The translations under genes and the position numbers were made by a program. The notes under the pieces were generated by a model. The model was not told the origin of the DNA. It was given only the letters and a program-made list of their open reading frames with translations, and searched no databases. 12,506 bases of DNA from contig JBBIOR010000007.1 in assembly GCA_037443265.1 (NCBI GenBank), positions 57,845 to 70,350 on the forward strand. Direction: 5' to 3'. Source of the DNA: Candidatus Fraserbacteria bacterium. Its GTDB lineage: Bacteria > Bipolaricaulota > Bipolaricaulia > RBG-16-55-9. Shown here one piece after another: positions 1 to 12,282 of this stretch. How positions within the stretch are numbered: the stretch's first letter is position 1; each line of letters starts with the position of its first letter.

Positions 1-752
1 GCCACGCGCCAGGGGATCGTGATCTGCTCTGCATGAAAGAAGGACGGATTGACGTTCAAAATGATCAGATTCATCGCCAGCGCGGAAAGTATGGTGAGGT
101 GCAAGATGAGCGCGCTCGTGCCGGTAGCAATTTTGATGGGGATCTTCTGGCGCACGGTCAAGAAGGTGTTGGAGATCTCGCCGATGGCGATGCCCACCAG
201 TCCCGCAAAGGCTCCTGCGGCTCCCAGAATGAATTGATCCAGCCCGCCCAGACGAAGCGCGCTGGAGTTCGCCCTGTTCGCCCGCCGGAGCAGATAGACC
301 CTCGGGCGATAGTCCGGCAGAGCTTCTGTGGGACGGCGATGGGCGCGGTAGAGAATTGCTGCTAATGCCAAGAGCAAGAATCCAAAGACGAGCAAGAGAC
401 CCTGGGCGGGGGCGAAATAGGAGAGGCCACGGGCGAAGATGGCCAAGGGGATGGTCAGAGCCAGTGCCTTGCCGGCGATAGAAAAATCGATCTGGCGGCG
501 GAACCAGTAGCCGGTCACGCTGCTGGTGTAGCCGAAGAATTCGATCGTGATGGCCAGTCCGATCGCTTCATTGGGCGTGATCTGTGGGAAATTTGGGATC
601 AACGCCGGAAAGAGAAAGAGAAATGCGGGCGTAAAGAGCACCGCAGCCTCCATGGCCAGCGAGCAGACGGTCGTGCAGATGGCCAAAGCCACGCCGACGA
701 TGAGCAGAAGCTCCAGAGGCGTAAAGCCCAAGATCGTCAGGGTCTCACTCAT
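1..752 (-). CDS. Sulfite exporter TauE/SafE family membrane protein (3' end runs off the window)
   Basis: Not in the ORF track; translated by hand from ATG at 752: MSETLTILGFTPLELLLIVGVALAICTTVCSLAMEAAVLFTPAFLFLFP...AIGLAITIEFFGYTSSVTGYWFRRQIDFSIA...GAAGAFAGLVGIAIGEISNTFLTVRQKIPIKIATGTSALILHLTILSALA. Many TM helices, with a two-repeat pattern typical of TauE. Start overlaps the upstream gene's stop by 8 nt. Confidence 0.8.
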   Translation of the reverse strand, partial: MSETLTILGFTPLELLLIVGVALAICTTVCSLAMEAAVLFTPAFLFLFPALIPNFPQITPNEAIGLAITIEFFGYTSSVTGYWFRRQIDFSIAGKALALTIPLAIFARGLSYFAPAQGLLLVFGFLLLALAAILYRAHRRPTEALPDYRPRVYLLRRANRANSSALRLGGLDQFILGAAGAFAGLVGIAIGEISNTFLTVRQKIPIKIATGTSALILHLTILSALAMNLIILNVNPSFFHAEQITIPWRV

Positions 753-1518
753 GGTGCCTGCCGTAGGGTGCGATGCAAGGTCGCTTACAGAGCCCGAACT
801 CGCACGTCGAAAACAGCTCAAACACGAGCGGTGGGAGCCCTTCGCGCACGGGCAGCCCCAGGCTCTCCACAGATTGCAAAGAGATTGGCGTATCGTGAGT
901 CACATAGCCGCCGGTCAGAAAATCCGCCAGTTGAGCGGCCTTCTCCTTAGGCAGTTTCCCCTGCAAGAGCCATTGCACGAAGGCTTTCACCTCGGCGATG
1001 GCCTTCTCAGCGATATCGGCATAGACGATCGTCTCATCAGCAATGGCTTCGAGGGGTTTCTGGGCTAGGAGCCCCAGCAGTGAAGCGGCAGGCACTCCCT
1101 GGATTTGGGGGTCCAGCGGGCCCAAGATGGAAAATTTCTCCATCAAGATCTCATCCGCTGCCAGAGCGATCAGCGTCCCACCGCTCAGGGCATAGAAGGG
1201 GACGATAGCCGTCACTTTCGCCTCGTGATGTTTGAGGGCCATGGCAATCATCTCCGCCGAGAGGATGATTCCCCCGGGCGTGTGGATGATGAGATCCAGG
1301 GGTTTTGCAGGGGGCGTCTTATGGATCTCCATGAGCACGAATTCACTGTCTTCAATTGTGATCGAGTCATCGTCTTCTGACCATGGTTCCCGTCGGTGGA
1401 TGAGAGTGATGACTTTCGTCCCGCGCTCAGCTTCAAGTTGAGCGACGATCTTTTGCCGCTGGGCCAGAAGGCGCTCCTTGAGGGCTTCCTTCTCGCGGCG
1501 CTCTTCATCGGTCATCAT
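745..1518 (-). CDS. SDH-family (ClpP/crotonase-fold, DUF114-like) serine protease
   Basis: Motifs LIIHTPGG, VPFYALSGGTLIALAADEILM (Ser), GPLDPQ (Asp) and THDTPI (His). AGGAGGA RBS 9 nt upstream of ATG 1518. Confidence 0.88.
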   Translation of the reverse strand: MMTDEERREKEALKERLLAQRQKIVAQLEAERGTKVITLIHRREPWSEDDDSITIEDSEFVLMEIHKTPPAKPLDLIIHTPGGIILSAEMIAMALKHHEAKVTAIVPFYALSGGTLIALAADEILMEKFSILGPLDPQIQGVPAASLLGLLAQKPLEAIADETIVYADIAEKAIAEVKAFVQWLLQGKLPKEKAAQLADFLTGGYVTHDTPISLQSVESLGLPVREGLPPLVFELFSTCEFGLCKRPCIAPYGRHHE

Positions 1519-1645: not shown

Positions 1646-1948
1646 CTACTCTCGCCTGAGGCCAAAGGCCTCCAGTTGCTTGAGCGGCTTTCGTAGCTCG
1701 CTCACTTGAACGCGTAGGGTCTGTTCGAAGCCCTTCAGCTGCTGTGCGGCCTTGCGCAGGTTTTCTGCTTGGGTGCGCAACTCCGGCTCCGTAAGGGCCG
1801 TCGGTTCCAGCTTCGCTGCCAGCTCTGTGGCTCGGAGCGCGCCCTTGCAGCAATCCTCCGCGGCCGCCTCCAGCGTGGCAAAGCGCTCCTGTACGCGGGC
1901 CAGCTCTGCCTGCAACTGGAGGAACTCCTTGAGCTTCGGCTCGGCCAT
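1646..1948 (-). CDS. Hypothetical 100-aa coiled-coil protein with a central CC pair
   Basis: Strong RBS GGAGAGGAGGTG before ATG 1948 (MAEPKLKEF...). Heptad-like Leu/Ala/Glu/Lys helices either side of EDCCKG. Confidence 0.75.
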   Translation of the reverse strand: MAEPKLKEFLQLQAELARVQERFATLEAAAEDCCKGALRATELAAKLEPTALTEPELRTQAENLRKAAQQLKGFEQTLRVQVSELRKPLKQLEAFGLRRE

Positions 1949-2040
1949 GGGGCTCACCTCCTCTCCATAGGGGATCGAGTCGGTGAGAGGGGAAAACACT
2001 TTCTCTGATGATCGCCTCTCTCATCCACCACGCATTTTTC

Positions 2041-2083
2041 ATCTTACCATCCTTTCGGCTAATAGGGAAGTAAACATTTCACA
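2041..2083 (-). promoter_or_regulatory. Putative activator-dependent promoter: extended -10 plus a Crp-type half-site
   Basis: Minus strand TGgTAAGAT (2049-2041), no recognisable -35, and TGTGA at 2083-2079. A 16-bp Crp box starting there would be centred near -41.5. Confidence 0.4.
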
Positions 2084-2783
2084 CGCCTGCCCGGTAACGT
2101 AGGGCCCTCTCATCTCGCACGAGAATTCGTCGCTTCGGATCGAAAGCAATCGCTCCTTCCTCGCGGAAACTCTTGAGCACGGAGACCACATGCTCGCGGC
2201 TCGCTCCGATAAGCTCCGCCAGCTCCTGCTGCGTAAAGACCACACTGATCCGTCGCCCTTCTTGAGTTTCTTCTCCGTATTCATCAGTCAGCTTCAATAG
2301 AAGCGTTGCCAATCTCTGCGGGACAGTCTTAAACACCAAATCTTCCAGCTTCATACGAATCTCACTTATGCGCGAGCCCATGAGCTTTATGATTTTGCAG
2401 CAGACCAGCGAGTTCTCTTGAGCGAATCTTATGAGCTTCCCTTTCGGCGTGATGCAGATCCGAGAGTCTTCGAGAGCTTGTGCAAAGAGCTCGCGCTGCG
2501 GGCATTCGGCCAGGGCCAGGACTCCAAAGGGTTGGCCTCGGCCGCGCAGCATCATCAGCGTCAGATGACGGCCCGCCGGGCTCACTTGAGAGATCTTCAC
2601 CACGCCCTCTTCGAGGAAGTAGACGGCCTCGCAAGGATCACCGGGCTGGAAGATCAGCTCGCCCTTCTTATACGAGCGTACCTCTGTTTGTTGGAGGAAT
2701 TCCTCCCGTTCAGATTCCGTCAGATTCTGGAGGAACTCGACGTTCTCCAAGCACCAAAATTGAATGCGATCCTCTTGAGTCAA
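2079..2783 (-). CDS. Crp/Fnr family transcriptional regulator (copy 2)
   Basis: cNMP-binding-like barrel (YKKGELIFQPGDPCEAVYFLEEGVVKI) and C-terminal HTH (FTQQELAELIGASREHV). TTG start with GGAGG upstream. Confidence 0.92.
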   Translation of the reverse strand: MTQEDRIQFWCLENVEFLQNLTESEREEFLQQTEVRSYKKGELIFQPGDPCEAVYFLEEGVVKISQVSPAGRHLTLMMLRGRGQPFGVLALAECPQRELFAQALEDSRICITPKGKLIRFAQENSLVCCKIIKLMGSRISEIRMKLEDLVFKTVPQRLATLLLKLTDEYGEETQEGRRISVVFTQQELAELIGASREHVVSVLKSFREEGAIAFDPKRRILVRDERALRYRAGV

Positions 2784-2807
2784 AGCTCCCAGCCTCCCGG
2801 CTGCGTT

Positions 2808-3509
2808 TCAGCACTTCCCTCCCGACGGATGGTCTCTCGCCGGAACGAGGCGTTGTCCTTCGGCTACCGCGCGCAATCCCAAGGGATCTAGGAGCACCAT
2901 CTTGCCATGGGAGTGGCCCCGGCCGGTATCCAACAGCCCCTCTTGCGCCAGGCAGTCCAGCGCTGCCGTAGTCGTCTCTCGAGCTGCACCGATGAGATAG
3001 GCCAGCTCTTGGTGAGTGATGTAAATTGCAACGCCTTCTGCTGAGGGTTCACCCCACTTCTGGGCCAACTCTAAAAGCTCTCGGGCGATCCGCTGTGGCA
3101 CACTCTGGAAGTGCAGGCGAAAGAGCTTCTCAAGGAGCTTTTGCTCATGCCGTCCCAGCAGAGAGAGGATCTCCAAGCTCAACTCTGCGTCTTCGAGGAT
3201 TTGTTGTCTAAGCTGTCTGAGATCGATGGGGCAGATACAGACGTCCTCCCAAACCTCGGCTAGGAAGAGCTGCTCTCCTCGAGAGAACAGATCCAGCTCT
3301 CCGAAGATATCGCCGGGGCCTAAGATGGCTACGGTCAACCGTCTGCCGCTTTCCGCCAGATAGGAGAGCTTCACCTTGCCGCGGTGGATTCGATAGATGC
3401 GCTCTGCGGGATCGCTGGGAAAGTAGATCACTTCTCCCGCTCCATAATTGATCTGCTCCGGGCAGCAGGGGAGATGGTCGAAATCGCTCCACTTCTCCAG
3501 ATCGATCAC
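2808..3509 (-). CDS. Crp/Fnr family transcriptional regulator (copy 1)
   Basis: GEVIYFPSDPAERIYRIHRGKVKL...LGPGDIFGEL and HTH ITHQELAYLIGAARETTT. Start placed at GTG 3509, 2 nt after the merB stop, giving 233 aa, similar to its neighbour. The start is uncertain. Confidence 0.88.
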   Translation of the reverse strand: MIDLEKWSDFDHLPCCPEQINYGAGEVIYFPSDPAERIYRIHRGKVKLSYLAESGRRLTVAILGPGDIFGELDLFSRGEQLFLAEVWEDVCICPIDLRQLRQQILEDAELSLEILSLLGRHEQKLLEKLFRLHFQSVPQRIARELLELAQKWGEPSAEGVAIYITHQELAYLIGAARETTTAALDCLAQEGLLDTGRGHSHGKMVLLDPLGLRAVAEGQRLVPARDHPSGGKC

Positions 3510-3511
3510 GC

Positions 3512-4141
3512 CTAGCTTCTGGTTGATGCTTCCTCCTCTGTGCTTAGGCATAAGCCCTTGGCCAGTGCGAATGCCTGAGATAGCGTGAGTTGAGCTCCCA
3601 CGACGTTCTTGTTTTGAGTCATCCATTGCTTCAAGTGCTCCGGGTGATCGAAGAGATTGATAAACGGGCAGACGGATTGCTTGATAGCATCAAAACCCGA
3701 CTTGCCAGCACAGCAAACTCTGCCCTCAGAGGAGACCCCCAGCCAGAGCACGGCAGACTCAGGTGCCCAAGAGGTGATCTCTTTCTTGCGCACGGCGGCT
3801 TCGATCAGGTGATCACAGATGGGACAGCGCGATTGGATCTCCGCCTCTTGCCCTGTGATCAGTGGGTACATCAGGGCATCCAAAGCGCAGTGAACGTGCA
3901 AGTGCTTATCTTTCAGTCGAACTACATGGCGCGTTGGGGTGGGCGAGACTAACAGCTCTGCCGAAGAAAGCACCCAGACCCGGCCCGCCTCGCGCCTTAG
4001 AGCTATCAGTTCCTCTAGATCCTTGGGAGTTCCCTTCAAGCCATAAAGCTCCCGGAGCCTCTGGGCGAATTCCTCAGGCAGCGGGATCGTCAACTCACCC
4101 TCAGGATTCACCGGCAGGCTGCAACATCCAGGCCTAGCCAT
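3512..4141 (-). CDS. merB: Organomercurial (alkylmercury) lyase MerB-like protein
   Basis: PTRHVV...HCALDALMYP matches MerB WCALD (Cys96/Asp99). SRCPIC matches MerB SHC. KQSVCPFINLF matches RQSFCCHVHFF (Cys159). Start is ATG 4141 or GTG 4144. Confidence 0.85.
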   Translation of the reverse strand: MARPGCCSLPVNPEGELTIPLPEEFAQRLRELYGLKGTPKDLEELIALRREAGRVWVLSSAELLVSPTPTRHVVRLKDKHLHVHCALDALMYPLITGQEAEIQSRCPICDHLIEAAVRKKEITSWAPESAVLWLGVSSEGRVCCAGKSGFDAIKQSVCPFINLFDHPEHLKQWMTQNKNVVGAQLTLSQAFALAKGLCLSTEEEASTRS

Positions 4142-4150
4142 CACTCTCCA

Positions 4151-4696
4151 TTAGCTTTGCAGGGCGAAGCCCAGGGGATACTCGCAGGCCAAGGGGACGC
4201 CATTTTGCAGACCAAGCACCGCGGGCGGACGCCGATCGCTGGGCAAGTCGCTCAGCGACTCCGCTACATCGAGAATCAGAATGTGCACTTGGTAGACGGG
4301 CAAATCTTTGCTCATGTCGCTGACGGTCAAGTTGCTATTCGGGATCTTCAAGCTGAGCTGTGCGCTGCCGCTTCCGTCGGTTGAGAAGTCTAGCGTGACG
4401 ATGGGTTTATTCGTGGCGTTGAAGCTGACGGCCTGCGCGATGGCCCGATAGGGGTTGAATATCCTGAGCCCGCGCAGCTCTAAGCTCACTTGAAAGTCCT
4501 TGGCGACCGGCGTGTAGGTAGCCGAGCCCAGCGCTGTCTCCCAACGCGACCAGCCGGGATAGACCAGCCTCACCAGCGCTCCCGGCGGCTGTTGAACCGG
4601 CTGAGCTTGCCCCTGCAGTGCCAGCACGCCCAGCAGCGGGCCAGAGGTAGCCAGCCCGATCGCTCCCTTCAAGAGATCACGACGACTACAACACAT
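4151..4696 (-). CDS. Hypothetical Tat-exported protein
   Basis: N-terminus MCCSRRDLLKGAIGLATSGPLLGVLALQGQAQ has a twin-arginine motif, an h-region and a plausible cleavage site. AGGAGG 9 nt upstream. Mature part is beta-rich. Confidence 0.75.
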   Translation of the reverse strand: MCCSRRDLLKGAIGLATSGPLLGVLALQGQAQPVQQPPGALVRLVYPGWSRWETALGSATYTPVAKDFQVSLELRGLRIFNPYRAIAQAVSFNATNKPIVTLDFSTDGSGSAQLSLKIPNSNLTVSDMSKDLPVYQVHILILDVAESLSDLPSDRRPPAVLGLQNGVPLACEYPLGFALQS

Positions 4697-4701
4697 ACAT
4701 C

Positions 4702-5901
4702 TCAGCCTCCTTTGTTAACGGTGATGTTCACGCTCCATGCCCAAACGCGATTGGGCAATATGGAATTGCCTTGCTCGTTCCCCAGAGCGATAATCCTGTC
4801 TCCCCTCAGCAAAAGAGCTAGAATTGTCCCTGGCACCGGCGTTTGCCAGAGCGGCTGATCATCTGAGAGGCGACGCACTCCAACGACTCTCCCGTGGGTA
4901 ATTGCCAGGCGATCGCTGACTGCATCAACAGCCATGTGAACGGAATCTGACTGTGGGAAGAATCGCCGCGGGCGACCGTCGTCCGTCGGGATAAGAGCCG
5001 CTTCAGATCCCAAATTCCCTTCGACTAAAACAAGTTGTCCTCGCTCGTCTATGCTCAGCTTCGGGGCATTCACCTTGCCGAGTGGGATCAAGCGCGCTTC
5101 GGAGCTCTGCTGCAGGAAGATGTTGACTGACAGATCTGCCTGACCCCACATTGGGTTTCCGGCAATCGCAAAACTGCTCCCATCCTGGGAGATGGCCGGA
5201 ATCACCATGGGGCCTTGGTACGTCAGCTCCCCCCGCCGGATCAGTTGCTGGTCTGAAGTTCTATACAGCTGAAAAGCGTGTGAGGTCGCCACGAGCAGAT
5301 ACTGCCCATCCCCGGAGAGCGCGACTGAAGGTACGTCCTTGGAGTCAGATGTCCAGAGAAGCTGCCCATCTTGTGAGAAGAGATAGGCCCGTCGACTGGA
5401 CGCTGCAGCGATGAATTTTCCGTCACGGCTTATGTCGGCACTGAAGGCGAATTCGCTGTCTTCCTGAAAACTATATGTCTTTAGCTCTTGGCCGTCTTGG
5501 GTATAGAGATGCAGCTGCTTGCCTGCCCCCAAGATCAGCTGACCGTCGGGAGTGGCCTTCACGATGGGCGTGGAGCAGCAGTTGGGATTGGCGTACACCT
5601 TTGACCACATGGCCTCGCCGGTCTCTAAATCAAACAAGCTGAGCTCGGTCAGGTTGGCTCGCTCTTTTTCAGACCAGAAGTTGCGCGCCAGCGCCAGATA
5701 TTTCCCGTCGGCAGAGGCAGCGATGCCCGCTAGCGTGCTCGGCTGGGGAAGAGCGAAGACAAAATCCACTTTCGTCTGTTGGTGCTTCGCGTTTACGGCG
5801 CCCGATGGCAGGTTTTCCGGTGGGCTGGCCCTCATGAATAGGAGCAAAGCCACCAGCCCGACTGCGATCAGCACTACATAAATTGGCATTCGAAGCTTCA
5901 C
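4702..5901 (-). CDS. Exported or membrane-anchored WD40/PQQ-like beta-propeller protein
   Basis: Repeated blade ends (ASADGKYLA, ATPDGQLIL, ISRDGKFIA, LSGDGQYLL, ISQDGSSFA). N-terminal hydrophobic segment. Start reassigned to GTG 5901 (GGGAGG 8 nt upstream); ATG 5889 is an alternative. Confidence 0.8.
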   Translation of the reverse strand: MKLRMPIYVVLIAVGLVALLLFMRASPPENLPSGAVNAKHQQTKVDFVFALPQPSTLAGIAASADGKYLALARNFWSEKERANLTELSLFDLETGEAMWSKVYANPNCCSTPIVKATPDGQLILGAGKQLHLYTQDGQELKTYSFQEDSEFAFSADISRDGKFIAAASSRRAYLFSQDGQLLWTSDSKDVPSVALSGDGQYLLVATSHAFQLYRTSDQQLIRRGELTYQGPMVIPAISQDGSSFAIAGNPMWGQADLSVNIFLQQSSEARLIPLGKVNAPKLSIDERGQLVLVEGNLGSEAALIPTDDGRPRRFFPQSDSVHMAVDAVSDRLAITHGRVVGVRRLSDDQPLWQTPVPGTILALLLRGDRIIALGNEQGNSILPNRVWAWSVNITVNKGG

Positions 5902-5963
5902 GACATTTGCCTCCCTTCTTCTCAAGTTATAAAATCTGCTCTCAAGACAGCCGAGGTGAGAGG

Positions 5964-5997
5964 GGGCCCGCCCCCAGGAGGCAACGAGGGCGGGCCC
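5964..5997 (-). other. Intergenic inverted repeat (10-bp perfect GC stem), no U-tract
   Basis: GGGCCCGCCC (5964-5973) and GGGCGGGCCC (5988-5997), starting just downstream of the stop at 6020. Confidence 0.55.
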
Positions 5998-6019
5998 TTG
6001 GGAAAGGGGACTTCCACTC

Positions 6020-6733
6020 TCATGATGAGCTTTCCGGTGTGGAGCGCAGAATTTCAAAGATCGTCCCCCTCTCTTTGACGAATCTCTCTGCCACAAGCCC
6101 CAATACCGCACCGAAGGCGATATGCGCGGCCAGCGTCGTCAGGAAGTACCATGGAGCTCCAGTGTTAGTTCCAAAGGGCCCCACACCCATCAGCAGCATC
6201 GGCGGAGTTGTCATCATGAGCACCTCCACGATTAGGCCCCACACGACGCCCCAATACCAGCGGACCTTGCCTGCGATCAGCGTGTAGACGAGCCCAAAGT
6301 CCGCCCCGTTTAGATAGTGATAGAGATAGCCCACCAGCAGAAGATCCCCGGTGACTTCATCCGTGCCGAAGATGAATTGGCCAAACATGGTGGGCATGTC
6401 GCCGGGCAGGGTCTGGAGCCCCACGCCCACAGGATAACGGATCAGATCGAGGGCGACTGTCGCCACAGCCCCGGCCCACAAGCCCGTGATGGCCCGATTG
6501 GACAGGCGCGGATAGTTTCGACGGCTTTTGACGAGCACCACCACCAAGACGATGAGCGATAAGATTAAGAACGGCATGTAGCTGCTCATCACGGAGTGAA
6601 TGGACATCATCATGGCCAACATGTCCGCGGGTTGGCGGGCCATGGTGATGGACGTTGAGACCAGCAGGAGACCAATGGGCGCGGCCCCACCGGTCAGAAG
6701 AGCGACCAGGGTCCAGAACAGCTCTGCATTCAA
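6020..6733 (-). CDS. Hypothetical polytopic membrane protein, Met/His-rich
   Basis: About six hydrophobic segments, with DMLAMMMSIHSVMSSYM, YLYHYLNGADFG, LMMTTPPMLLM and AAHIAFG. TTG start with AGGAGG 5 nt upstream. Confidence 0.78.
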   Translation of the reverse strand: MNAELFWTLVALLTGGAAPIGLLLVSTSITMARQPADMLAMMMSIHSVMSSYMPFLILSLIVLVVVLVKSRRNYPRLSNRAITGLWAGAVATVALDLIRYPVGVGLQTLPGDMPTMFGQFIFGTDEVTGDLLLVGYLYHYLNGADFGLVYTLIAGKVRWYWGVVWGLIVEVLMMTTPPMLLMGVGPFGTNTGAPWYFLTTLAAHIAFGAVLGLVAERFVKERGTIFEILRSTPESSS

Positions 6734-6751
6734 TGCGGCCTCCTCTCTAAG

Positions 6752-7489
6752 CTACAAACGAATTATGCCGCTGTAGATCAAGTTGTAGTAGATCAGATAC
6801 GCACCGGCCCCGACCATCACAAGAGCCGCGGCCCTGGGGACGTACTTCATCAGCGGGCGAAGGTACTGCTGAACGAACTCCTTCGAGAAGCTCATCAGCA
6901 GCGATAAGGCGACCATCATCAGGGCCATGCCGCTGGCGTAGGCGAGGAAATTGAACAGCCCGCCTACGAAGCCCTGCAGCAAGGGCTGAATGACCCAGAT
7001 GAGAAAGATGGGCAGCGTACAACCCACGGAGCCCACCGCGTAGCCGATCCCATAGAGATAGTAGGGCAGAAGCCCCTGACGAGGAGCCGGGTTGCCCATC
7101 AACCGCGCCGCCAACCGGTCCAGTGAGAGCCCCATCGAGAAGGAGCCGAAGAACATGAGCAGGCCCAGCACAATGAGCAGGGCTCCGATAGTTGCCGCAA
7201 TCCAGGGCAACTGAGGGCCGAGAAGCCTCATTATGCTTCCGCCCACCAGCGAGAAGGCCAATCCCAGCACCCCGAAGACCGTGAAGAAGCCGACACTGAC
7301 GATCAATCCCAAAAGGAGGCCGCGCCCGCCGCTCCTAAGCCAAGCGTCTTTTGAGATCGGAGCTTCACTGGGATTGTTGCACCGGCCCAGATAATACGAG
7401 ACATAGGCCGGCAGGAGCGCAAACCCGCAAGGGTTGAAGAACGTGATCACACCAGCACTAAACGCGATCGCCAGCATCTCCGGGTTCAT
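6752..7489 (-). CDS. ccdA: CcdA / DsbD transmembrane-domain electron transporter
   Basis: Both redox Cys motifs present (FFNPCGFALLPAY and SVGCTLPIF). Six TM segments. ATGA overlap with the upstream redoxin. Confidence 0.9.
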   Translation of the reverse strand: MNPEMLAIAFSAGVITFFNPCGFALLPAYVSYYLGRCNNPSEAPISKDAWLRSGGRGLLLGLIVSVGFFTVFGVLGLAFSLVGGSIMRLLGPQLPWIAATIGALLIVLGLLMFFGSFSMGLSLDRLAARLMGNPAPRQGLLPYYLYGIGYAVGSVGCTLPIFLIWVIQPLLQGFVGGLFNFLAYASGMALMMVALSLLMSFSKEFVQQYLRPLMKYVPRAAALVMVGAGAYLIYYNLIYSGIIRL

Positions 7490-8121
7490 GGCTGCTCTTT
7501 CGCCACTCGCTCGAGTGTCTGCTGAAAGGCTTGCGTCCCCACCGAGAAAGTTCCTCGAAAGGCAATGACCCCACGGCGATCGAGAAGATACTCCGTCCCC
7601 AGGGCATAGACTTGGTACCGCTTGGCGATCTCATTGGTCGGGGTGTCGAGGGCGTACATGAAGCTGGGCCGGGCGTAGCGCCGGCGGTGCTCGCGCAGGC
7701 TCTGCGGTGAATCACCCGCCGGATCGACGCTGATCCAGAGAATGTTGAGATTGGGATAGCGGTCTTTGAGTCGAGCCAGCTCCTGAGTCTCTGGGATGCA
7801 GGGAGTGCACCAGGAGGCGGAGAAGTAGAGGATCACCGGCTGGCCTTGAAAGTCGCTCAGCGCAAAGCTTTGGCCGTCGATGTCTGTGAGCGCAAAATCC
7901 GGCGCCCGCTCGCCCACTCGCGTCCCCAGGGGAGTCGTATCGTTTAGGGATTGAGCCTGCCCTTGGGATGCAGAGGGCTCGTTGGGCGTGAGTCTCCCGA
8001 TCCAACTCGCACACGAGGGACAGACCGCCGGAAGCGCGAAGAAGGCCAACACGAACAGCCCTAAAAGCCCGACCCCGCCGATCAAGAGAATCTTCAGATT
8101 CTTCGTAGTTTGCTTCTTCAT
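7486..8121 (-). CDS. Membrane-anchored TlpA/ResA-like thiol:disulfide oxidoreductase
   Basis: GERAPDFALTDIDG...LSDFQGQPVILYFSASWCTPC...ISVD. Basic N-terminus followed by a TM anchor. Confidence 0.9.
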   Translation of the reverse strand: MKKQTTKNLKILLIGGVGLLGLFVLAFFALPAVCPSCASWIGRLTPNEPSASQGQAQSLNDTTPLGTRVGERAPDFALTDIDGQSFALSDFQGQPVILYFSASWCTPCIPETQELARLKDRYPNLNILWISVDPAGDSPQSLREHRRRYARPSFMYALDTPTNEIAKRYQVYALGTEYLLDRRGVIAFRGTFSVGTQAFQQTLERVAKEQP

Positions 8122-8136
8122 AGACCCCCCCCTTTT

Positions 8137-9528
8137 TCAGACGACACAACAGCTCATAGTCTTGAGATTGCGCTCAAAGCTCTGAGCACAGATCTTCCAG
8201 GCCTCGGCGTAGGTGGGAAAGACGTGGACCGTCTCGATCAGCTCGTCGATCGTAAGGCCCGCCCGCAGGGCCAGCAGGGGCACGTGGATGATCTCGGCGG
8301 CATTGGCGGCCACCGCATGGGCGCCTAAGATTCTGCGGGTTTTCGGATGAACGACGAGCTTTACAAGTCCGCGGGTGTCTCCCGCGGCGTGGGCTTTAGG
8401 GACTGCCTCGAGAGGGAGCGTGCGACACCAGCACTCCCCCAGCTCTTGCATCTCGCGTTCTTCTGTCCAGCCCACGGAAGCCACCTGCGGGTCCGTGAAG
8501 ACGGCGTGCGGGACGAGATCATAATTGATCGTTCGCGCTTCGCCCGTAAGCGCGTTGTGCGCCGCGTTGAAGCCCTGCTTGGCCGCTATGGTCTCCAGGG
8601 GCATTCTGCCCGTGACATCCCCTGCAGCGTAGATGCCCTTTACATTCGTCTCTTGGCGCTCGTCCGTGATAATGAAGCCCCGCGGATCGAGCTTGACTCC
8701 GGTATTTGCTAGCCCGAGATGGTCGGAGTTGGGCCGGATGCCGGTGGCGGCTAAGACCCTTTCGACTTCCACCACGCAGCCTCCGGAGTCATAGAGCTTG
8801 ATTTTCCCCGGCTGGCCTTCGACTTTCGTGAGGCGACAACCAGCCTTAATAGTCATGCCTTCACTCTGAAGAATTTCTGTCAGGGCTTGAGAGATCTCCG
8901 GCTCATGCTGAGGCAGGATGCGGCCCATCAACTCCACGGTAGAGACATCCGTTCCTGCCCGATGGAAGATCTGGGCGAACTCTAAGCCCAAGGGACCGCC
9001 GCCGATGACGGCCATGGAGCGCGGTAACTCTTCCAACTCAAGGGCCGTCACGTTCGTCAAAGGCTCAGCTTCGTTTAGGCCGGGGACCGGCGGGATGAGA
9101 GTCCTAGCCCCCGTAGCGATGATGATCCGCTCCGCTGAGAAGCGCTCGCCGTTGACTTCCACGGCGTGGGGGGCAACGAAGTGGGCACGACCCTCGATCA
9201 GAGTGACGTTCCCCAGGGCTTTGAGCACATCGCGGTAATTGCGCTTGCGCAGAGTCGAGACGAGCGCGTCTTTGCCCTTTTTGAGTTTTGCGTAATCGAG
9301 CGTAGCGTTTGAAGAGAGCCAGCCGTCTCGGCCCGCGCGGGCGTGTGCATATTCTTTAAGAGCTTCCATGAGAAATTTGCTGGGGATGCAGCCCACATTC
9401 ACGCACGTCCCTCCCAGGGGTAAGCCGTGGTTGATCATGAGCACTTCGGCTCCGAGGTCTCTGGCGCGCGTGGCCGCTGCGAAGGCCGCCGCTCCTCCGC
9501 CAATCACGATGAGATCATAACGATTCAT
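8137..9528 (-). CDS. merA: Mercuric reductase MerA, catalytic core only (no NmerA domain)
   Basis: FAD motif IGGGAAAFAAA, redox centre GGTCVNVGCIPSK, conserved Tyr in LRKRNY, HVFPT, and the C-terminal vicinal pair MSCCVV. Confidence 0.9.
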   Translation of the reverse strand: MNRYDLIVIGGGAAAFAAATRARDLGAEVLMINHGLPLGGTCVNVGCIPSKFLMEALKEYAHARAGRDGWLSSNATLDYAKLKKGKDALVSTLRKRNYRDVLKALGNVTLIEGRAHFVAPHAVEVNGERFSAERIIIATGARTLIPPVPGLNEAEPLTNVTALELEELPRSMAVIGGGPLGLEFAQIFHRAGTDVSTVELMGRILPQHEPEISQALTEILQSEGMTIKAGCRLTKVEGQPGKIKLYDSGGCVVEVERVLAATGIRPNSDHLGLANTGVKLDPRGFIITDERQETNVKGIYAAGDVTGRMPLETIAAKQGFNAAHNALTGEARTINYDLVPHAVFTDPQVASVGWTEEREMQELGECWCRTLPLEAVPKAHAAGDTRGLVKLVVHPKTRRILGAHAVAANAAEIIHVPLLALRAGLTIDELIETVHVFPTYAEAWKICAQSFERNLKTMSCCVV

Positions 9529-9899
9529 ACAAGCACAGCCTCCTTCTCTAAGCGCAAATAGCGCTGGACGACGGGCTCATTGAGCGAATAGAAGATCGTC
9601 TTGGCATCGCGGCGGGCCCGGACAAGATTATATTTTCTCAGCACGCGGAGTTGATGGGAGACGGCCGAGACGGACTCGTCTAAAATATCGGCCAGATCAC
9701 AGACGCACAGCTCCGATTCCCGATGGAGCAGATATAAGATCTTTAAGCGTAAGGGGCCGCTGAGCGCATGTAAGATCCCGCGCAGCCGCTGCAATTCCTC
9801 GTTCTCCACCAGCTCTTGGCGCAGGCGTAAGATGCGCTCCGGCGTGATGGTGGGACCTAGACACTTGAAGCCTAGATGCTGCACAGTTCGTTGAAGCAT
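9525..9899 (-). CDS. ArsR/SmtB family metalloregulator, CadC-like
   Basis: ALSGPLRLKILYLL...ELCVCDLA...SAVSHQLRVL...RRDAKTIFYSL. ATG 9899 has AAGGA 8 nt upstream. ATGA overlap with merA. Confidence 0.92.
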   Translation of the reverse strand: MLQRTVQHLGFKCLGPTITPERILRLRQELVENEELQRLRGILHALSGPLRLKILYLLHRESELCVCDLADILDESVSAVSHQLRVLRKYNLVRARRDAKTIFYSLNEPVVQRYLRLEKEAVLV

Positions 9900-9910
9900 G
9901 AGCACCGTCC

Positions 9911-9936
9911 TTCATTTGAAAAAATATTCAAATGAA
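9911..9936. promoter_or_regulatory. ArsR/SmtB-type operator (12-2-12 inverted repeat)
   Basis: TTCATTTGAAAA-AA-TATTCAAATGAA, 11/12 symmetric with a perfect outer 10 bp. Lies between the -10 and the RBS of arsR. Confidence 0.85.
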
Positions 9937-9965
9937 ACTCTAGCACACCCTGCGCCCAAAGTCAA
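9937..9965 (-). promoter_or_regulatory. sigma70 promoter of the arsR-merA operon
   Basis: TTGACT (9965-9960), 17 nt, TAGAGT (9942-9937), with an extended -10 TG. Confidence 0.75.
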
Positions 9966-10883: not shown

Positions 10884-11213
10884 TTATTTCTTCGCCAGCC
10901 GCTGCGGAGCTGCTTTGAGAAAGGCCAGAAAATCTGCAAAAGCTTCTTCAATCCTATCGAGATGGAGGGAGTAGTATTTTGTTTGTCCCTCCCGGCGTGA
11001 GGTCACAAAGCCCTGCTGCTTAAGCATGGTGAGATTGCGCGAGATGCTGCTCATGTCGCGGTCCTCGAAGGTCTCGCCCTGGACCTCACCCTGAAAGGCA
11101 GCGGCAATAGCGGTCACAGGCATCTCCCCATGCGCAGCTAAGAGCTCCATCAGCCTAAGGCGGGAGCGATGAGAGAAGCACTTGAACAAGTAAACGTAGC
11201 GACTGTAGACCAT
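10884..11213 (-). CDS. Second ArsR/SmtB family regulator
   Basis: FKCFSHRSRLRLMELL...SSISRNLTMLKQQGFVTSRREGQTKYYSL. ATG 11213 with AAGGAGAGGA upstream. Confidence 0.85.
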   Translation of the reverse strand: MVYSRYVYLFKCFSHRSRLRLMELLAAHGEMPVTAIAAAFQGEVQGETFEDRDMSSISRNLTMLKQQGFVTSRREGQTKYYSLHLDRIEEAFADFLAFLKAAPQRLAKK

Positions 11214-11241: not shown

Positions 11242-11270
11242 TTGACAAAGGAGGCCGGGGGTATTATAAT
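11242..11270 (+). promoter_or_regulatory. Perfect consensus sigma70 promoter
   Basis: TTGACA (11242-11247), 17 nt, TATAAT (11265-11270). Confidence 0.88.
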
Positions 11271-12078: not shown

Positions 12079-12282
12079 ATGGCAAAGGTGACCAGAGTCA
12101 CCGTGTACTGGACATGCGCTTTCTGCCACAAAGCCATCCAGGAGAGCAAGGCTTTGAGGATCGTCCAAGACGGTCAGATTTATTACGTCTGCAGTTCCCG
12201 CTGTCGGGAACGCTTCCTGGCCATCGCGAGCAGATATGCTGTCCCGTCGGGGACGAACTCGAAATGCTCTGACAGGGAGTGA
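12079..12282 (+). CDS. YHS/TRASH-like metal-binding small protein
   Basis: CAFCHKAI...DGQIYYVCSSRCRERF matches the TRASH/YHS pattern CxxC-x~21-CSxxC. AAGGAG upstream. Confidence 0.78.
   Translation: MAKVTRVTVYWTCAFCHKAIQESKALRIVQDGQIYYVCSSRCRERFLAIASRYAVPSGTNSKCSDRE

Follow-up and report, generated by a model that had tools for sequence, protein, structure and literature searches.

Mercury-resistance (mer) operons are the closest described relatives of the locus considered here. Their enzymes MerA (TIGR02053; PDB 4ywo and 1zk7) and MerB (PF03243; PDB 3f0p and 5c17) are recognised by signature residues, which section 5 of PMC8261052, the part of that article used here, gives as a C-terminal vicinal Cys pair, a redox-active Cys pair, Tyr264 and either Tyr (bacterial) or Phe (archaeal) at position 605 for MerA, and as Cys96, Asp99, Cys117 and Cys159 for MerB. 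Excerpts of a survey of mer operons (PMC3466566) place ArsR-type regulation in a minority of them (8%) and describe about half of the surveyed operons as being without merP and merT. The chemistry of adjacent cysteines (CC pairs), and the presence of such pairs in mer proteins, are already known. Here, we describe a 12,506-nucleotide stretch of Candidatus Fraserbacteria bacterium (GCA_037443265.1, contig JBBIOR010000007.1, positions 57,845 to 70,350; referred to as the window), which likely carries an ArsR-controlled merA/merB mercury-resistance operon of a Bipolaricaulota-type bacterium, and in which seven genes contain CC pairs, including one for a predicted eight-bladed beta-propeller. Judging from sequence comparisons and structure predictions, we give an even chance to the view that these pairs are separate soft-metal thiol sites in one mer operon, in which the propeller would present a dithiol on the outside of the cell, held in the reduced state by CcdA and TlpA, and would catch Hg(II) or organomercurials.

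The MerA and MerB of the window have all of the signature residues listed above. In contrast to known mer operons, the window operon is without merR, merT and merP and adds tlpA and ccdA as well as genes for the CC propeller, a Cys-free membrane protein, a twin-arginine (Tat) protein and two Crp regulators. Its MerB differs from the solved MerBs by a CC tag at the N-terminus and a loop insert with a further CC. The genes on which the argument turns are:

1646..1948, minus strand: 100-residue helical (coiled-coil) protein, whose sole Cys are the CC at 1847-1852
2079..2783, minus strand: Crp/Fnr regulator 2 (Crp2), with CC at 2397-2402, at the start of a long helix
2808..3551, minus strand: Crp/Fnr regulator 1 (Crp1), with an N-terminal CC at 3462-3467 and a central CxC
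3512..4141, minus strand: MerB (PF03243), with an N-terminal CC tag at 4121-4126 and a loop CC at 3710-3715
4151..4696, minus strand: Tat-exported beta-sandwich protein, with CC at 4688-4693 in the signal n-region and a conserved C-terminal Cys
4702..5901, minus strand: eight-bladed beta-propeller with an N-terminal hydrophobic anchor, its C108-C109 encoded at 5575-5580
6020..6733, minus strand: Cys-free Met/His-rich membrane protein with a weak DUF6789 match
6752..7489, minus strand: CcdA-like membrane thiol-reductant carrier with both catalytic-type Cys
7486..8121, minus strand: membrane-anchored TlpA/ResA-like thioredoxin (AhpC-TSA, 75.8 bits), with an active CxxC and an N-terminal CxxC
8137..9528, minus strand: MerA without the NmerA domain (TIGR02053, 528.1 bits), with a C-terminal CC at 8146-8151 and Phe at the position-605 site

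The initial annotation had located eight CC codon pairs in these genes and had counted six of the CC genes as consecutive (coiled-coil, Crp2, Crp1, MerB, Tat and propeller); all eight pairs are exact, in frame and on the minus strand, and the run of six stands. It had also named a comparison of CC frequency with the whole proteome, and this gives a clear enrichment, with CC in 7 of 10 neighbouring genes versus 46 of 1,632 genes (2.8%) genome-wide. The background was obtained with a hexamer gene caller on the window's own genome (G000, 88% complete), where Cys makes up 0.86% of residues and 51 CC pairs occur. Locally, the Cys content is 1.74%, and 16 of 44 Cys lie inside CC pairs, versus 99 of 4,351 genome-wide. 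The Tat and the MerB N-terminal pairs hinge on start-codon choice, and public collection calls include the 181-residue Tat form and the 209-residue MerB form, but also a 193-residue MerB without the tag. With the blind starts of the caller, which omit these two pairs, CC is found in 6 of 10 consecutive genes, a density reached anywhere in the genome in none of 3,000 gene-order shuffles and in 2 of 3,000 simulations preserving Cys counts; the longest blind run of CC genes is four, equalled in 3 of 3,000 shuffles and 14 of 3,000 such simulations. With the starts of the initial annotation, seven of ten genes have CC versus 0.83 expected from the Cys count of each protein (P 1.2e-7), and five of eight do so when MerA and MerB are set aside (P 2.5e-6), both P values being uncorrected for the post hoc choice of motif and window. 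The CC clustering is real and goes beyond what cysteine richness explains. Chance or local Cys richness alone could draw on a Cys content of twice the background and on a motif picked after the fact, but it is scarcely credible in view of the simulations just given (2 of 3,000) and of a propeller pair kept in 21 of 21 family members; it is refuted for the propeller, MerA and Crp1 pairs, and could account for those of the Tat and coiled-coil proteins. An origin of the CC sites as duplication copies was rejected, because no informative DNA repeats link them and their codons differ. Among seven other merA neighbourhoods in the phylum (G009 counted separately), five have no CC outside MerA, and CC density is therefore a trait of this island rather than of merA loci generally.

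The propeller has 399 residues, of which C108 and C109 are the only two Cys. Its family was assembled from full-length matches picked by coverage, with the sequences unseen, together with the close matches of a second search, giving 21 rows and leaving out two long generic WD proteins, the window's own copy and the 92-residue fragment P0027. The CC pair is invariant in all rows down to 20% identity, each row has exactly two Cys, and the eight most distant rows (20-42% pairwise identity) share 13 invariant columns that include C108, C109 and P112; CC-x-x-P occurs in none of 140 other propeller matches. A strongly hydrophobic N-terminal stretch is present in 19 of the 21 propellers, the remaining two being short at the N-terminus, and an N-in anchor would place the propeller domain outside the membrane. 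The predicted model (pLDDT 86) is eight-bladed and superimposes on eight-bladed structures with Z 26-31 and an rmsd of about 3 A over about 316 residues, and the CC lies in the loop that connects the final strand of blade 1 with the opening strand of blade 2, which we take, from general knowledge of propellers, to be on the ligand-binding face. Generic propellers of the WD40, BamB and YxaL kinds make up the top 50 structural matches, no NCBIfam family above its cut-off was found to cover the protein, and an Atlas look-up with the homologue P0002 returned only unnamed and PQQ_2/WD40 clusters. A 98% identical propeller occurs at L020 and a 39% homologue in Candidatus Acetothermia; genome and metagenome scans gave only close relatives, no plasmid match was found for the window propeller, P0019 or P0033, and viral contigs gave none either.

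The initial annotation had tied the hypothetical genes of this region to merA and merB, and their genomic context bears this out. Within the phylum, the propeller family is present in 5 and merA (over its cut-off) in 13 of 184 genomes, and in all five propeller genomes the propeller and merA share a contig, from adjacent to about 8.5 kb apart. In the neighbourhoods compared (five phylum genomes and four metagenome loci), merA is a neighbour in 8 of 8 loci that are long enough, tlpA in 7 of 7 that reach far enough and ccdA in 7 of 8 (not in G027), and merA or merB directly follows the propeller gene in L017, L018, L026, L027 and L028. Linked MerAs occupy three places in a 17-row MerA tree, of which the topology alone was used, with propeller-less MerAs between them, and the propeller-merA link therefore spans different MerA lineages. 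The Tat homologue and the DUF6789-like protein are likewise found beside merA or merB. One 28-kb contig, G024:C69 (L062, L019), has two merA of different lineages, a merT-two-HMA fusion, merB, three Crps and two ccdA/tlpA sets. A CMD/AhpD-family gene with a C-terminal CC tail, absent from the window, is found at L017:6768-7157, L019:4161-4535, L027:3166-3552 and L028:7000-7386.

The CcdA/TlpA pathway usually serves apocytochrome c. Similar to the described CcdA/DsbD plus TlpA/ResA pathway, the window proteins have both CcdA Cys and the TlpA CxxC, whereas the apparent client here is the propeller of a mer operon. Both CcdA-like Cys motifs are kept in the window and in the loci of 6 of 6 relatives; as there is no Pfam match at E 0.05 and NCBIfam gives only ArsG (26 versus 200 bits, below the cut-off), the CcdA-like label is based on the Cys motif and on the CcdA names given by JGI to relatives (cluster-mates). 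TlpA has the thioredoxin fold and a membrane anchor, keeps its active CxxC in 8 of 8 rows and is below the ResA NCBIfam cut-off. One CcdA-propeller fusion is known (P0182, 604 residues, on 2 contigs), in which CcdA stands exactly where the propeller's own anchor would be. A complex prediction for propeller residues 44-393 with TlpA residues 62-208 (score 0.01) speaks neither way. The third membrane protein of this group, the Cys-free Met/His-rich protein, is present in 11 of 184 phylum genomes. Its homologues (among them L129:1396-2178, L149:6677-7423, L150:2234-3001 and L151:6174-6935) adjoin merA, merB, MerR-like genes or the same arsR, and on a Stutzerimonas plasmid a homologue with 39% identity is found at a distance of two genes from merR. 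It is a candidate for an unnamed mer membrane component.

FNR and FLP sense through a layout of N-terminal Cys plus a central strand Cys, and Crp1 is alike in having both. Unlike FNR, as far as the spacing goes, its four conserved Cys form a CC plus a CxC, it is far below the Fnr cut-off (19 versus 228 bits), and its CC form is seen only in mer loci. In an alignment of 50 Crp rows, three of which are fragments of counted genes, the Crp1 CC is present in 4 of 4 mer-locus orthologues (G000, G001, G009 and G024; 43-80% identity), which also have the central CxC in common, and in none of 40 other Crps at that column. A 43% identical paralogue that is not in a mer locus has two spaced N-terminal Cys, so a Cys sensor may predate the mer link. 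The Crp2 CC occurs in G000 and G009 (68%), is reduced to one Cys in G024 (46%) and is seen in none of 40 others, and the gene is absent from the G001 locus, which has one Crp instead of two.

The Tat pair stands ahead of the twin arginines and is likely incidental: G001 (81%) retains it, and it is replaced in a cluster of 33-38% homologues that still adjoins merA. In G001, the Tat gene (L016:12988-13533) has an in-frame TGA at the window's Arg84; selenocysteine was rejected, since the codon falls at an Arg position, and it is read as a stop. The Tat model (pLDDT 48) matches only generic Ig/Fn3-like sandwiches (Z up to 7.4). For the coiled-coil protein, CC is present in 4 of 4 sequences, but these are 75-88% identical with about 70 of 100 columns invariant, and the conservation of the pair is therefore uninformative.

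The initial annotation had proposed that all CC pairs are one shared Hg/As handle, forming a relay or sink across seven folds, and had suggested comparing their conservation inside and outside mer loci. This comparison came out divided: the propeller pair (21 of 21) and the Crp1 pair (4 of 4 in mer loci versus 0 of 40 elsewhere) are conserved as expected, and the Tat, MerB loop and Crp2 pairs vary. Strong CC enrichment, the retention of five of the eight pairs in some homologues at 45-70% identity or lower, and the additional CC-tailed genes (CMD family) in four related loci would all suit a relay. The single shared handle is nevertheless not supported and very unlikely: the Tat pair sits in a signal peptide and is lost in homologues, the MerB loop and Crp2 pairs are variable, the proteins are predicted to reside in different compartments, and five of the seven other merA neighbourhoods are free of CC outside MerA. 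Gene content varies as well, with Crp2 absent in G001, a stop in the G001 Tat gene, the Tat gene in 3 of 41 genomes and the coiled-coil gene in 2 of 41. Several of the CC pairs are instead likely separate sites, selected one by one for soft-metal binding.

In the case of MerA, the protein passes the TIGR02053 cut-off (528.1 versus 454.45 bits), its C42/C47 redox pair and the Tyr equivalent to Tyr264 align with Metallosphaera sedula MerA 4ywo, the best PDB match, and the Phe at position 605 aligns with 4ywo and is of the archaeal type. Its C460-C461 is the C-terminal vicinal pair and is present in the 15 of 15 MerA rows of the tree. MerB passes PF03243 (93.9 versus 27 bits), and its C85, D88, C106 and C158 align with C96, D99, C117 and C159 of the solved alkylmercury lyase; it is filed as a divergent MerB-family protein. 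The N-terminal CC of MerB is found in 7 of 13 rows and is missing in two close rows (one truncated) and in the four distant rows, of which one carries a CC at its C-terminus; the loop CC is found in 8 of 13 rows, with a single Cys in 4 and none in 1, and is absent from the solved MerBs. At L026, merB is followed by merA, and L027 and L028, which are 100% identical to it on either side, lack about 0.7 kb in between, a deletion by which the first 19 codons of MerB, including the CC, are joined to MerA in frame. The tag loci compared (L026:1270-3427 versus L028:10084-11559, L027, L017:1926-3356 and L018:2970-4481) comprise three different junctions: an identical nine-residue CC peptide stands at other junctions in L017 and L018, and between L018 and L026 five of its nine codons differ, all synonymously. 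The CC-tagged MerAs are without NmerA, and selection for a small Hg-catching tag on MerA is plausible; alternatively, the deletions merely borrowed the start of merB. Peptides of 68-69 residues with 11-12 Cys and a GDCCVxC motif are encoded directly in the merB operons of G014 (L149:6459-6665 and L152:6753-6962).

The remaining features of the operon are:

1..752, minus strand: TauE/SafE-family exporter (PF01925, 64.5 bits), extending past the window edge
745..1518, minus strand: SDH-type Clp-fold protease with a C-terminal Cx3C, co-occurring with tauE in some mer loci
9525..9905, minus strand: ArsR/SmtB metalloregulator with an N-terminal Cys and CVC (NF033788, 87 bits, cut-off 55), overlapping the merA start
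9911..9936, strand-neutral: perfect 10-6-10 inverted repeat between promoter and arsR, likely an ArsR/SmtB operator
9937..9965, minus strand: promoter-like site TTGACT-17-TAGAGT with extended TG, ahead of arsR, 9 of 12

From 9905 downwards, the order on the minus strand is arsR, merA, tlpA, ccdA-like, the Cys-free membrane protein, propeller, Tat, merB, crp1, crp2, the helical protein, SDH protease and tauE; most junctions overlap or are shorter than 25 nt, and three are 118-130 nt. G000 contains no other perfect, AT-rich inverted repeat with 10-bp arms and a spacer of 4-8 nt than this one, and its TTGAA..TTCAA core is retained in G001, G009 and G003, in which the -35 box of the promoter-like site is also found at the same place, although a score of 9 of 12 alone is not above shuffle counts. 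The three Cys of ArsR are retained in three relatives. The genes from arsR to tauE would thus form one autoregulated operon. A GC-rich inverted repeat without a T-run, seen by eye at 5962-6000 between the membrane-protein and propeller genes, is a possible RNA-stabilising stem or attenuator.

An ArsR/SmtB regulator in place of MerR is one reason to ask whether some other soft metal or metalloid (As(III), organoarsenicals, Cd, Pb or Cu) is the ligand of the accessory CC sites, with merA and merB as part of a multi-metal island. This would also fit the weak ArsG match of the CcdA-like protein (26 bits, cut-off 200), the P1B-type ATPases in the related operons L017 and L028, and a chromate transporter and second Cys-rich ArsR 8-10 kb outside the window. 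We regard it as distinctly improbable, as ArsR-type regulators also control the 8% of mer operons mentioned above (PMC3466566, in the excerpts used), no ars reductase or efflux genes were seen in the window operon, and merA is the constant neighbour in all eight long-enough loci.

Beyond the operon, a perfect sigma-70 consensus promoter (12 of 12) at 11242-11270 on the plus strand stands ahead of short unannotated ORFs and points away from a second ArsR-family gene (10884-11213, minus strand). A 67-residue TRASH/YHS-like zinc-finger ORF with weak matches lies at 12079-12282 on the plus strand, 2.5 kb from merA, and was not called by the hexamer gene caller; in the excerpts of PMC3466566, stand-alone TRASH genes in mer operons are archaeal only. 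The metal island goes on to the left of the window (G000:C7:47904-57052, L169) with genes for a chromate transporter, a two-component pair, an ArsR that contains CCC and a 53-residue peptide with 9 Cys, and also with two TlpA-like genes, another ccdA-like gene and two DUF4399-like proteins.

In the mechanism that we propose for separate thiol sites in one mer operon, metal would free ArsR from the palindrome, and the minus-strand genes would be transcribed together. CcdA would hand electrons outward to TlpA, by which the propeller dithiol would stay reduced, and the propeller would bind Hg at the cell surface, carrying out the job of MerP in another fold. In the cytoplasm, MerB would cleave R-Hg and MerA would reduce Hg(II) via its known C-terminal pair, with the N-terminal CC peptide of MerB likely substituting for the missing NmerA domain and the CC plus CxC of Crp1 likely forming a thiol sensor. 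Like MerP (PMC3466566, in excerpt), the propeller is proposed to be an exported Hg-capturing dithiol encoded beside merA; unlike this small HMA-fold CxxC protein, it is a 399-residue anchored eight-bladed propeller with adjacent Cys and its own CcdA/TlpA. No HMA domain was matched in the window proteins, and the propeller is not a MerP. A bolder version, possible but rather doubtful, holds that the propeller is a new class of membrane-anchored surface Hg/organomercurial scavenger that is served by its own CcdA/TlpA line and replaces MerP where merT and merP are absent, that the DUF6789-like protein is the importer, and that the nine-residue CC peptide is a portable minimal NmerA substitute.

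A number of observations weigh against the proposed separate Hg-binding sites. Eight-bladed PQQ alcohol dehydrogenases commonly contain a vicinal disulfide, for example C104-C105 in XoxF (PMC13573614, in the part of that article used), and the propeller resembles these enzymes (MxaF/XoxF) in being eight-bladed and exported with vicinal Cys about 105 residues in. Its CC could accordingly be a redox-active or structural vicinal disulfide, and propeller, TlpA and CcdA an envelope thiol-redox module, for repair of metal or oxidant damage or for small-substrate processing, that rides the mer island without binding Hg. The similar sequence position of the pair combined with a weak PQQ_2 match below the cut-off agrees with this, as do the tightest neighbours of the propeller, tlpA and ccdA, and the presence in G000 of another tlpA-tlpA-ccdA set at 2-5 kb beyond the window. 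On the other side, the propeller is much shorter (399 residues versus a 530-position model), TIGR03075 matches none of the 21 members at E 0.01 and nothing in G000 or G001, and in five loci the propeller gene immediately precedes merA or merB. PQQ dehydrogenases are not among the best 50 matches of three fold searches with the propeller, although absence from such a list is no exclusion, and a pqqC search of the five propeller genomes gave no match, as did the control genomes. By profile match and length, the propeller is not of the PQQ alcohol dehydrogenase family, but its chemistry may be alike, and we consider the disulfide explanation unlikely, if still of real weight.

The other adverse points concern sampling and linkage. 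Since phmmer rates Cys matches highly, homologues that keep the CC are favoured in the propeller set. All propeller loci of known context come from one phylum and largely from one island, with near-identical strains at L026-L028, and are therefore not independent; moreover, the context counts leave out the six most distant propellers (P0005, P0006, P0019, P0033, P0046 and P0077). As 8 of 13 merA genomes have no propeller, it is not required. MerT is present in one of the five propeller genomes (G024, fused to two HMA domains) and was not found in the 88% complete G000. Of 15 records listed, P0182 alone is a fusion, which may have arisen as a local accident; in G113, a Crp adjoins merA but is without CC; and the DUF6789-like protein, being Cys-free, cannot be a thiol relay. 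MerB is below its NCBIfam cut-offs (NF033555, 62 versus 200 bits; NF009710, 76 versus 193 bits) and matches from residue 69 only. For the tag, the L018 MerA has its own downstream RBS and ATG, and the CC peptide may have acquired its synonymous changes before the deletions took place.

In open-licence PMC and bioRxiv texts, supplements aside, neither a CC propeller nor ccdA/tlpA was found to be described for mer operons, nor were mer operons with Crp/Fnr, and Bipolaricaulota merA appears there in a table row only. If the proposed role of the propeller is true, it would found a new class of mer accessory protein for operons without merT and merP, and the locus is a candidate for envelope mercury handling in such operons, with a soluble, readily expressed two-Cys propeller and an encoded reductant supply. 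Near-identical strains in which MerA either carries or lacks a short CC tag offer a natural experiment. Finally, clusters of CC motifs can flag unknown metal-handling genes, provided that each pair is examined separately.

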